DNA of 523 nt from Escherichia coli (GTDB lineage Bacteria; Pseudomonadota; Gammaproteobacteria; Enterobacterales; Enterobacteriaceae), in the NCBI RefSeq assembly GCF_003334765.1, contig NZ_QOWT01000116.1. One strand, written 5' to 3'. The translations under genes and the position numbers were made by a program. Positions 1-523 of this stretch are shown here, one piece after another; within the stretch, counting starts at the first letter, position 1, and each line of letters begins with the position of its first letter. The notes beneath the pieces were generated by a model. The model made no database searches, was not told where the DNA came from, and saw only the letters and a list, made by a program, of their open reading frames with translations.

Positions 1-351
1 GGTGGTCACTGCGATACCGCGATTGCCTCTGCGCTTTCCATCATCGTCGCGCCGCTGGTACGCGGTCGTATTCCGACGCTGGTGGATAACGTGCTGACCT
101 GCATCACCCCGGGCTCCAGTGTCGATATTCTGGTCACAGACCACGGCATCGCTGTTAACCCGGCACGTCCGGAGCTGGCAGAACGTCTGCAGGAAGCGGG
201 GATCAAAGTGGTTTCTATTGAGTGGCTGCGTGAACGTGCGCGTCTGCTGACCGGTGAGCCACAGCCGATTGAATTCACCGACCGCGTCGTTGCCGTTGTG
301 CGTTACCGCGATGGCTCGGTGATCGATGTTGTGCATCAGGTGAAGGAATAA
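1..351 (+). CDS. citF: Citrate lyase alpha subunit (citrate CoA-transferase), C-terminal fragment; 5'-partial, CDS continues upstream of the window. Stop codon TAA at 349-351.
   Basis: Frame 1 is open from base 1 to TAA at 349-351 (GGHCDTAIASALSIIVAPLVRGRIPTLVDNVLTCITPGSSVDILVTDHGIAVNPARPELAERLQEAGIKVVSIEWLRERARLLTGEPQPIEFTDRVVAVVRYRDGSVIDVVHQVKE*). I recognise this translation as the C-terminus of enterobacterial CitF from memory, not from a search. Codon usage is E. coli-like (CTG Leu, CGT Arg, GGC/GGT Gly, ATC Ile). It is immediately followed by citX, as expected for citCDEFXG. The ORF-track start at 82 is an internal GTG (Val) codon, not the true start. Confidence 0.9.
   Translation, partial: GGHCDTAIASALSIIVAPLVRGRIPTLVDNVLTCITPGSSVDILVTDHGIAVNPARPELAERLQEAGIKVVSIEWLRERARLLTGEPQPIEFTDRVVAVVRYRDGSVIDVVHQVKE
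342..348 (+). promoter_or_regulatory. Ribosome-binding site (Shine-Dalgarno, GAAGGAA) for citX, embedded in the last codons of citF
   Basis: GAAGGAA at 342-348 has its AGGA core at 344-347, leaving a 7-nt spacer (348-354) before ATG 355. This matches the anti-SD complement and sits within the canonical spacing range. It overlaps the citF codons AAG-GAA and the stop. Confidence 0.6.
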
Positions 352-354
352 GTC

Positions 355-523
355 ATGCACCTGCTTCCTGAACTCGCCAGCCACCATGCGGTGTCAATTC
401 CCGAGCTGCTCGTCAGCCGGGATGAAAGGCAAGCACGGCAACACGCCTGGCTCAAGCGCCATCCTGTTCCACTGGTCTCCTTTACCGTGGTTGCGCCTGG
501 GCCGATTAAAGACAGCGAGGTCA
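355..523 (+). CDS. citX: Apo-citrate lyase phosphoribosyl-dephospho-CoA transferase (holo-citrate lyase ACP synthase, EC 2.7.7.61), N-terminal fragment; 3'-partial, CDS continues downstream of the window.
   Basis: ATG at 355-357 is preceded by a Shine-Dalgarno at optimal spacing. The open frame runs to the window end, giving [57 protein letters not shown] recognise this as the N-terminus of E. coli-type CitX from memory, and its position directly downstream of citF matches the known operon order. It is absent from the supplied ORF track, presumably because it has no stop inside the window. Confidence 0.88.

Follow-up and report, generated by a model that had tools for sequence, protein, structure and literature searches.

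Escherichia coli K-12 carries citF (b0615) and citX (b0614) side by side, separated by a 3-nt spacer, with citT downstream and dpiBA divergent. The DNA investigated here is a stretch of 523 bp from E. coli, referred to throughout as the window, and it shares with K-12 the gene order, the spacer and the gene products. The two sequences are 97.1% identical, with 15 substitutions, and among the coding differences only one changes the amino acid (A/V at window position 446). K-12 also shares the compositional pattern of the window, with a GC content of 56.4% for citF and 58.3% for citX and a GC content at the first codon position (GC1) of 66-69%. Over these 523 bp, the window allele exceeds that of K-12 by 1.3 GC points.

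Classical E. coli genomic islands are the other described system with which the locus can be compared. The likeness lies in a GC content off the genome mean, with a deviation of roughly 8 points for the window and roughly 4 for the operon. In contrast to the classical islands, which are tRNA-linked, integrase-bearing and strain-variable, the cit genes deviate towards high GC and do so at codon position 1, and the cit locus is core, syntenic over genera, and without tRNA, integrase or IS hallmarks. We consider it very likely that the 59% GC of the window is mainly due to the amino acid composition of the CitF C-terminus and the CitX N-terminus, and that it is ancestral, protein-driven and no marker of horizontal transfer.

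Gene content of the window

The window is ordinary coding sequence over the citF-citX junction of the E. coli citrate lyase operon citCDEFXG (Table 1). Frame 1 of the plus strand is open from the first base to the TAA of citF (translation ...DGSVIDVVHQVKE, followed by the stop; C-terminal residues VVHQVKE), and the ATG of citX starts a second reading frame, which is open through the end of the window. The peptide of the citF part was aligned with positions 376-492 of the 492 positions of the TIGR01584 citF profile, its C-terminal end (E = 2.6e-51). The peptide of the citX part matched positions 1-56 of 185 in NF002383 (E = 3.6e-21) and also matched TIGR03124 (citX), whose product is apo-citrate lyase phosphoribosyl-dephospho-CoA transferase, alias holo-ACP synthase. 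The full-length proteins were assessed with a 99.8%-identical allele. CitF of the GF131 allele scored 815 bits and passed the TIGR01584 equivalog cut-off of 501, and CitX passed both TIGR03124 (265.9 bits, cut-off 158) and NF002383 (204.4 bits, cut-off 105). The RefSeq annotation under the megablast matches likewise reads citF and citX.

The operon is of the type with the order citC-D-E-F-X-G, in which citX is a separate gene between citF and citG, as annotated in K-12, GF131 and strain 746. This order was also confirmed by tblastn in Escherichia, Citrobacter, Salmonella, Buttiauxella and other loci. The short spacer and the placement of the Shine-Dalgarno-like AAGGA suggest that translation of citF and citX may be coupled. 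When the window was searched against Rfam for structured RNA, no match was obtained at E <= 1. A 90-aa antisense ORF with a GTG start was observed wholly inside citF, and most likely it arises as a side effect of the GC-rich codons.

Table 1. Coordinates of features in the window and of the related loci discussed in the text
Feature	Location	Strand	Remarks
citF 3' end (citrate lyase alpha subunit, citrate CoA-transferase)	window 1-351	+	last 116 codons and TAA stop (349-351)
Shine-Dalgarno-like AAGGA	window 343-347	+	within the last citF codons, 7 nt upstream of the citX ATG
citF-citX stop-to-start spacer	window 352-354	+	3 nt; spacing matches the K-12 and GF131 annotation
citX 5' end	window 355-523	+	first 56 codons (ATG and 55 more) and one extra base
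Private synonymous G (GAG, Glu)	window 258	+	A (GAA) in all compared E. coli core and accessory alleles
Antisense ORF	window 6-278	-	90 aa, GTG start
K-12 cit operon	45-kb K-12 cit region (L002) 21632-26857		
K-12 citR/ybdO (b0603)	45-kb K-12 cit region (L002) 11717-12619		LysR-type regulator
Accessory module	NZ_CP023353.1 908984-919870		E. coli strain 746
Surroundings of the accessory module	NZ_CP023353.1 850000-976000		composite island of more than 80 kb

Relatives of the window allele

The window carries a B2-like allele that differs from those of E2348/69 and NC101 at 2 positions, and many B2-type strains are 99.6% identical to it. The best matches (99.8%) comprise 13 records, namely 12 genomes with two copies of the operon and GF131 with its core copy only, and all of them differ from the window by one synonymous mismatch at the private G listed in Table 1. 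A is also the base at this position in the outgroups, namely E. albertii and two cryptic Escherichia lineages. No 100% match to the window was found among 5426 complete E. coli genomes, and an exact 42-mer with the private G was absent from JGI metagenome contigs.

Two further origins were considered for the window and rejected. For a recent gain of GC in its lineage, outgroup polarisation of the 15 differences from K-12 gave no clear direction. For a plasmid origin, eight PLSDB records match at 97-98%, all of which are non-mobilizable and most of which are 0.28-4.9 Mb in size; they probably represent whole or partial chromosomes that were entered as plasmids. The PLSDB records NZ_CP141089.1, NZ_CP134663.1 and NZ_OL790696.1 (4.8-4.9 Mb) carry the core cit locus and are probably chromosomes mislabelled as plasmids.

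GC content against the genome background

An earlier note, made from the letters of the window, had counted about 310 G+C (around 59%), had supposed an E. coli-like host and a cit locus, and had called the composition of so short a stretch weak evidence. All of this was borne out. The exact base count is G 156, C 154, T 117 and A 96, giving 310/523 or 59.27% G+C, the best matches are E. coli sequences annotated as citF and citX, and the caution was justified. The GC is even along the window, ranging from 54% to 63% across 100-nt windows.

A binomial test against 50.8% gave p = 1.1e-4, and an empirical distribution of windows was used as a fairer null. The background consisted of seven K-12 MG1655 regions totalling 345 kb, six of 50 kb at arbitrary round coordinates and the 45-kb cit neighbourhood, from which 13,660 overlapping 523-bp windows were taken, so that the percentiles are independent of gene calls. 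These windows have a mean GC of 51.2% (sd 4.7), and 1.0% of them reach 59.27%, which puts the window at the 99th percentile, with the cit operon in or out. The window thus really sits at the edge of the host distribution. The upper ~1% of a genome still amounts to several dozen such windows, and the window is not exceptional.

The homologous 523 bp have a GC content of 57.9% in K-12, 57.2% in E. albertii, and 58.5% and 59.7% in two other Escherichia lineages. The whole citCDEFXG operon has 55.4% in both K-12 and GF131 and 55.4-55.5% in the accessory copy described below, against 49-51.5% in the operon flanks. Among operon-sized (5.2 kb) K-12 sample windows, 2.6% have at least 55.4% GC, and the maximum is 56.5%. 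At the level of genes, citE, citF and citX lie at the 93rd-99th GC percentile of 288 K-12 sample genes, a set that derives from greedy ORF calls within the 345 kb rather than from the full annotation and that includes at least one spurious antisense ORF, over citE. Undoubted core genes have a similar GC content, such as entA (58.0%), rlmH (58.3%), and tilS, astD and purD (about 58%).

In the same 45-kb K-12 region, the highest AT content by a wide margin is that of citR/ybdO (38.6% GC, 39.9% at the third codon position), at a distance of 9 kb from the operon. This gene looks compositionally more foreign than the cit genes.

Codon positions and amino acid composition

To locate the excess, the coding part of the window was compared with the sample genes by codon position. 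GC1, GC2 and GC3 are 72.7, 43.0 and 63.4%, against gene means of 58.4, 41.2 and 55.2% (sd 5.8, 4.9 and 7.1), which corresponds to an excess of 14 points at position 1 and 8 points at position 3. GC1 is above that of every sampled K-12 gene, and GC3 is at the 91st percentile and accounts for about a third of the excess. Both sides of the junction contribute alike, with 59.0% GC in the citF part (GC1 70.9%, GC2 43.6%, GC3 62.4%) and 60.1% in the citX part (GC1 75%, GC2 41%, GC3 64%).

The encoded peptide is enriched in Val (14%, 2.0x), His (2.0x), Pro (1.6x) and Arg (1.45x), and it is depleted in Lys (0.54x), Asn (0.30x), Phe (0.28x) and Tyr (0.21x), with no Met. Codons for the abundant residues begin with G or C, and a residue composition of this kind would push GC1 to about 73%. 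We infer that the high GC1 results from constraint on the proteins. When the peptide was back-translated with average E. coli synonymous usage, a GC content of 56.4% was obtained, which lies between the gene mean of 51.6% and the observed 59.8%. This indicates that roughly 58% of the excess is fixed by the amino acid sequence, the rest being synonymous choice.

The smaller share comes from the moderately high GC3 (63%), which is unconnected to codon adaptation at the level of expression. GC1 and GC3 are correlated over K-12 genes (r = 0.38), and regression predicts a GC3 of 61.8% at a GC1 of 72.7%, against the observed 63.4%. The GC3 of the window is about usual for E. coli genes of such GC1. 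Regional mutation bias or GC-biased gene conversion may contribute to the synonymous portion, ~40% of the excess.

The codon adaptation index (CAI) was calculated with weights built from 30 K-12 genes, comprising ribosomal-protein genes (28 listed), rpoA, tufA and fusA. A side observation concerns the split of CAI within one operon in K-12, where citX and citG have values of 0.33-0.34 (16th-21st percentile) and citE and citF have values of 0.58-0.59. The split between structural genes (citE, citF) and accessory or maturation genes (citX, citG) is consistent with different protein demand. It is also consistent with the overlap of citX and citG, which is 26 nt in K-12.

Conservation across species

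By megablast, 5422 of 5426 complete E. coli genomes have a match over 80% or more of the window. A scan for CitF with one genome per species yielded 80 loci, at 69 of which the stretch homologous to the window could be compared with the flank genes. It is richer in GC than the flank genes at every one of the 69 loci, by a mean of 6.6 points (sd 2.7). At the same loci, GC1 is raised by 10.4 points (positive in 97%) and GC3 by 6.2 points (positive in 91%). The loci range from Escherichia to Providencia, Sulfurospirillum, Paenibacillus and Clostridium, with a flank-gene GC from 28% (Clostridium) to 62% (Cardiobacterium), and the excess in E. coli and its near relatives (+5 to +11 points) is typical among them. 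Since the excess over the flanks is present at all 69 loci, the enrichment follows the protein and not a donor genome.

The gene neighbourhood is conserved as well. The core operon of K-12 and GF131 lies between dpiBA-dcuC-pagP and citT-rna-rnk, and besides E. coli and E. albertii, a dozen Citrobacter species and one Buttiauxella locus keep the order pagP-dcuC-dpiA-dpiB-citCDEFXG-citT-rna-rnk. In Salmonella enterica, the neighbourhood is complete or nearly complete in subsp. arizonae and for the most part retained in subsp. diarizonae, and Intestinirhabdus likewise retains most of it. As the neighbourhood is common to these genera, the cit locus is older than their divergence. Within ±20 kb of the core cit locus, no tRNA genes were detected with ARAGORN, and the annotations of K-12 and GF131 list neither an integrase nor an IS.

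An accessory citCDEFXG module

In the 12 two-copy genomes, the best match to the window is a second, accessory operon, which forms part of a larger module. Its gene order is a divergent GntR regulator, an Amidohydro_2 enzyme, an MFS transporter, citCDEFXG and an acnB paralogue, and the packing is tight, with spacers of 5 nt between the MFS gene and citC and 25 nt between citG and acnB. The three upstream genes have a GC content of 45%, and the cit and acnB genes have 51-58%. For the Amidohydro_2 enzyme, the best NCBIfam match is 4-sulfomuconolactone hydrolase with a score below the cut-off, and the enzyme is accordingly described as lactonase-like only. The full module is present in about 31 of the 5426 complete E. 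coli genomes, in addition to a few truncated copies. An Enterobacter genome carries the same module, which is 79% identical in nucleotide sequence across 8.4 kb and retains a remnant of the 5' end of acnB. Klebsiella oxytoca has a related cluster that contains, in addition, PrpF, an Iso_dh-family dehydrogenase, three aconitases, a CitMHS transporter and oadGAB. Literature searches on the composition of the cit operon and on the accessory module returned nothing relevant and no description of the module.

The accessory copy differs from the core operon in the 5' end of citC and the 3' end of citG, and it is without citT and dpiAB, being joined instead to the 45%-GC genes upstream and the acnB paralogue downstream. 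The C-terminus of its CitG resembles that of the Enterobacter module and not that of the E. coli core. Compared with the core cit operon of GF131, the first and the last 800 nt have 27 and 24 mismatches, respectively, but the central 3.6 kb has only 11, and the interior, window included, is 99.7% identical to the GF131 core allele. The clustering of mismatches at the ends suggests that gene conversion may have taken place between the core and accessory cit copies. The accessory copy of strain 746 is identical to the window except at the private G, as is the closest core allele. With an interior of such similarity, 523 bp cannot tell the core from the accessory copy. Both copies have the same sequence over the window, and the argument from composition is therefore unchanged whichever copy the window comes from.

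The module of strain 746 is surrounded by a composite island adjoining the gsp (T2SS) and kps group-2 capsule loci (Table 1). This island contains repeated CP4-like modules (CbtA/YeeU, antirestriction, Ag43), many IS remnants, a tyrosine integrase, sul2-ISCR2 and pap remnants. The IS elements around the accessory copy are IS3, ISL3, IS66 and IS21.

It is possible, though doubtful, that the window comes from the island-borne copy and that the module serves anaerobic catabolism of a tricarboxylate lactone (e.g., an isocitrate- or hydroxycitrate-type lactone). In such a route, the lactone would be imported, its ring would be opened, aconitase would isomerise the product to citrate, and citrate lyase would cleave the citrate. 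Both the substrate and the pathway are what we infer purely from the gene content.

Alternative explanations for the GC excess

The earlier note had offered a bias towards G/C-ending codons in a well-expressed operon as one source of the high GC, and the codon bias itself was confirmed: the GC3 of 63.4% is above the gene mean of 55.2%. High CAI values are also found in parts of the operon, with 0.575 for K-12 citE and 0.588 for K-12 citF (93rd-94th percentile) and 0.61 (96th percentile) for the citF part of the window. The link to expression did not hold, however. The ribosomal and elongation factor reference set has a GC3 of only 50.3%, which is below the gene mean and implies that strong codon adaptation in E. 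coli does not raise GC3 and is not the main cause here; among genes, the correlation between GC3 and CAI is weak (r = 0.30). The CAI is moreover not high throughout the window. For the citX part, the CAI is 0.29 (7th percentile), and 10 of its 55 codons have w < 0.1. This part contains the rare codons CTC (three times), CGG (twice), AGG, CCC and GGG, and yet its GC and GC3 match those of the citF part. With the larger part of the excess at codon position 1, we find it very unlikely that high expression and preferred G/C-ending codons explain the composition. A different account of the synonymous share alone, by GC-biased gene conversion or recombination, including exchange between the core and accessory cit copies, is somewhat less improbable, but still unlikely. 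Of the 15 sites at which the window differs from K-12, 10 have G/C in the window and A/T in K-12, and 3 show the opposite. A conserved interior with divergent ends is typical of conversion tracts, and the accessory copy has this form, its interior being nearly identical to the B2-like core allele. Polarisation with three outgroups gave a mixed picture, however, in which several K-12 A/T states are derived and several G/C states of the window are ancestral. Furthermore, the GC of this stretch is 57-60% in every Escherichia lineage, whether or not the accessory copy is present, and the difference between the alleles is small beside the 8-point excess.

Least probable of all, to the point of being hardly credible, is that the cit locus is or was a genomic island from a donor of higher GC. 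The GC of the operon, which is matched by few K-12 windows of its size and exceeds that of its flanks, could be taken as a sign of such an origin, and the second copy of the operon does occupy a real island with IS elements and an integrase. The core locus, however, is present in nearly all E. coli genomes rather than variably, its synteny is unbroken across several genera, and its flanks are free of mobile hallmarks. GC3 responds most strongly to genomic GC, and the signature of a donor is expected to be strongest there, whereas the excess is larger at GC1 than at GC3, which is the opposite pattern and one that depends for the larger part on the protein. The same excess over the flanks recurs in all 69 tested genomes. 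Even in the island copy, the genes that look foreign are the 45%-GC GntR, lactonase and MFS genes, and not the cit genes. The earlier note, which had proposed a check for an island, had held that an operon GC3 within the host range together with flanks lacking island hallmarks would speak against one. This is what was observed for the core locus, where the GC3 of the individual operon genes falls at the 42nd-89th percentile and the flanks within ±20 kb contain no tRNA gene, integrase or IS, so that the island reading is not supported. The suggestion in the same note that the composition is a signature of the cit locus survives as a property of the encoded proteins, given the GC1 excess and its recurrence in 69 of 69 species, and in no other sense.

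Implications

The accessory lactonase-MFS-cit-acnB module is the only item meriting further attention, and it is separate from the GC finding. What the window illustrates is that a stretch within the top 1% of local GC can be wholly ordinary. Its excess sits in the first codon position and is seen again in all orthologues, and the operon is core and syntenic. On this basis caution is advised: the GC content of a short window is poor evidence for horizontal transfer or for expression level.
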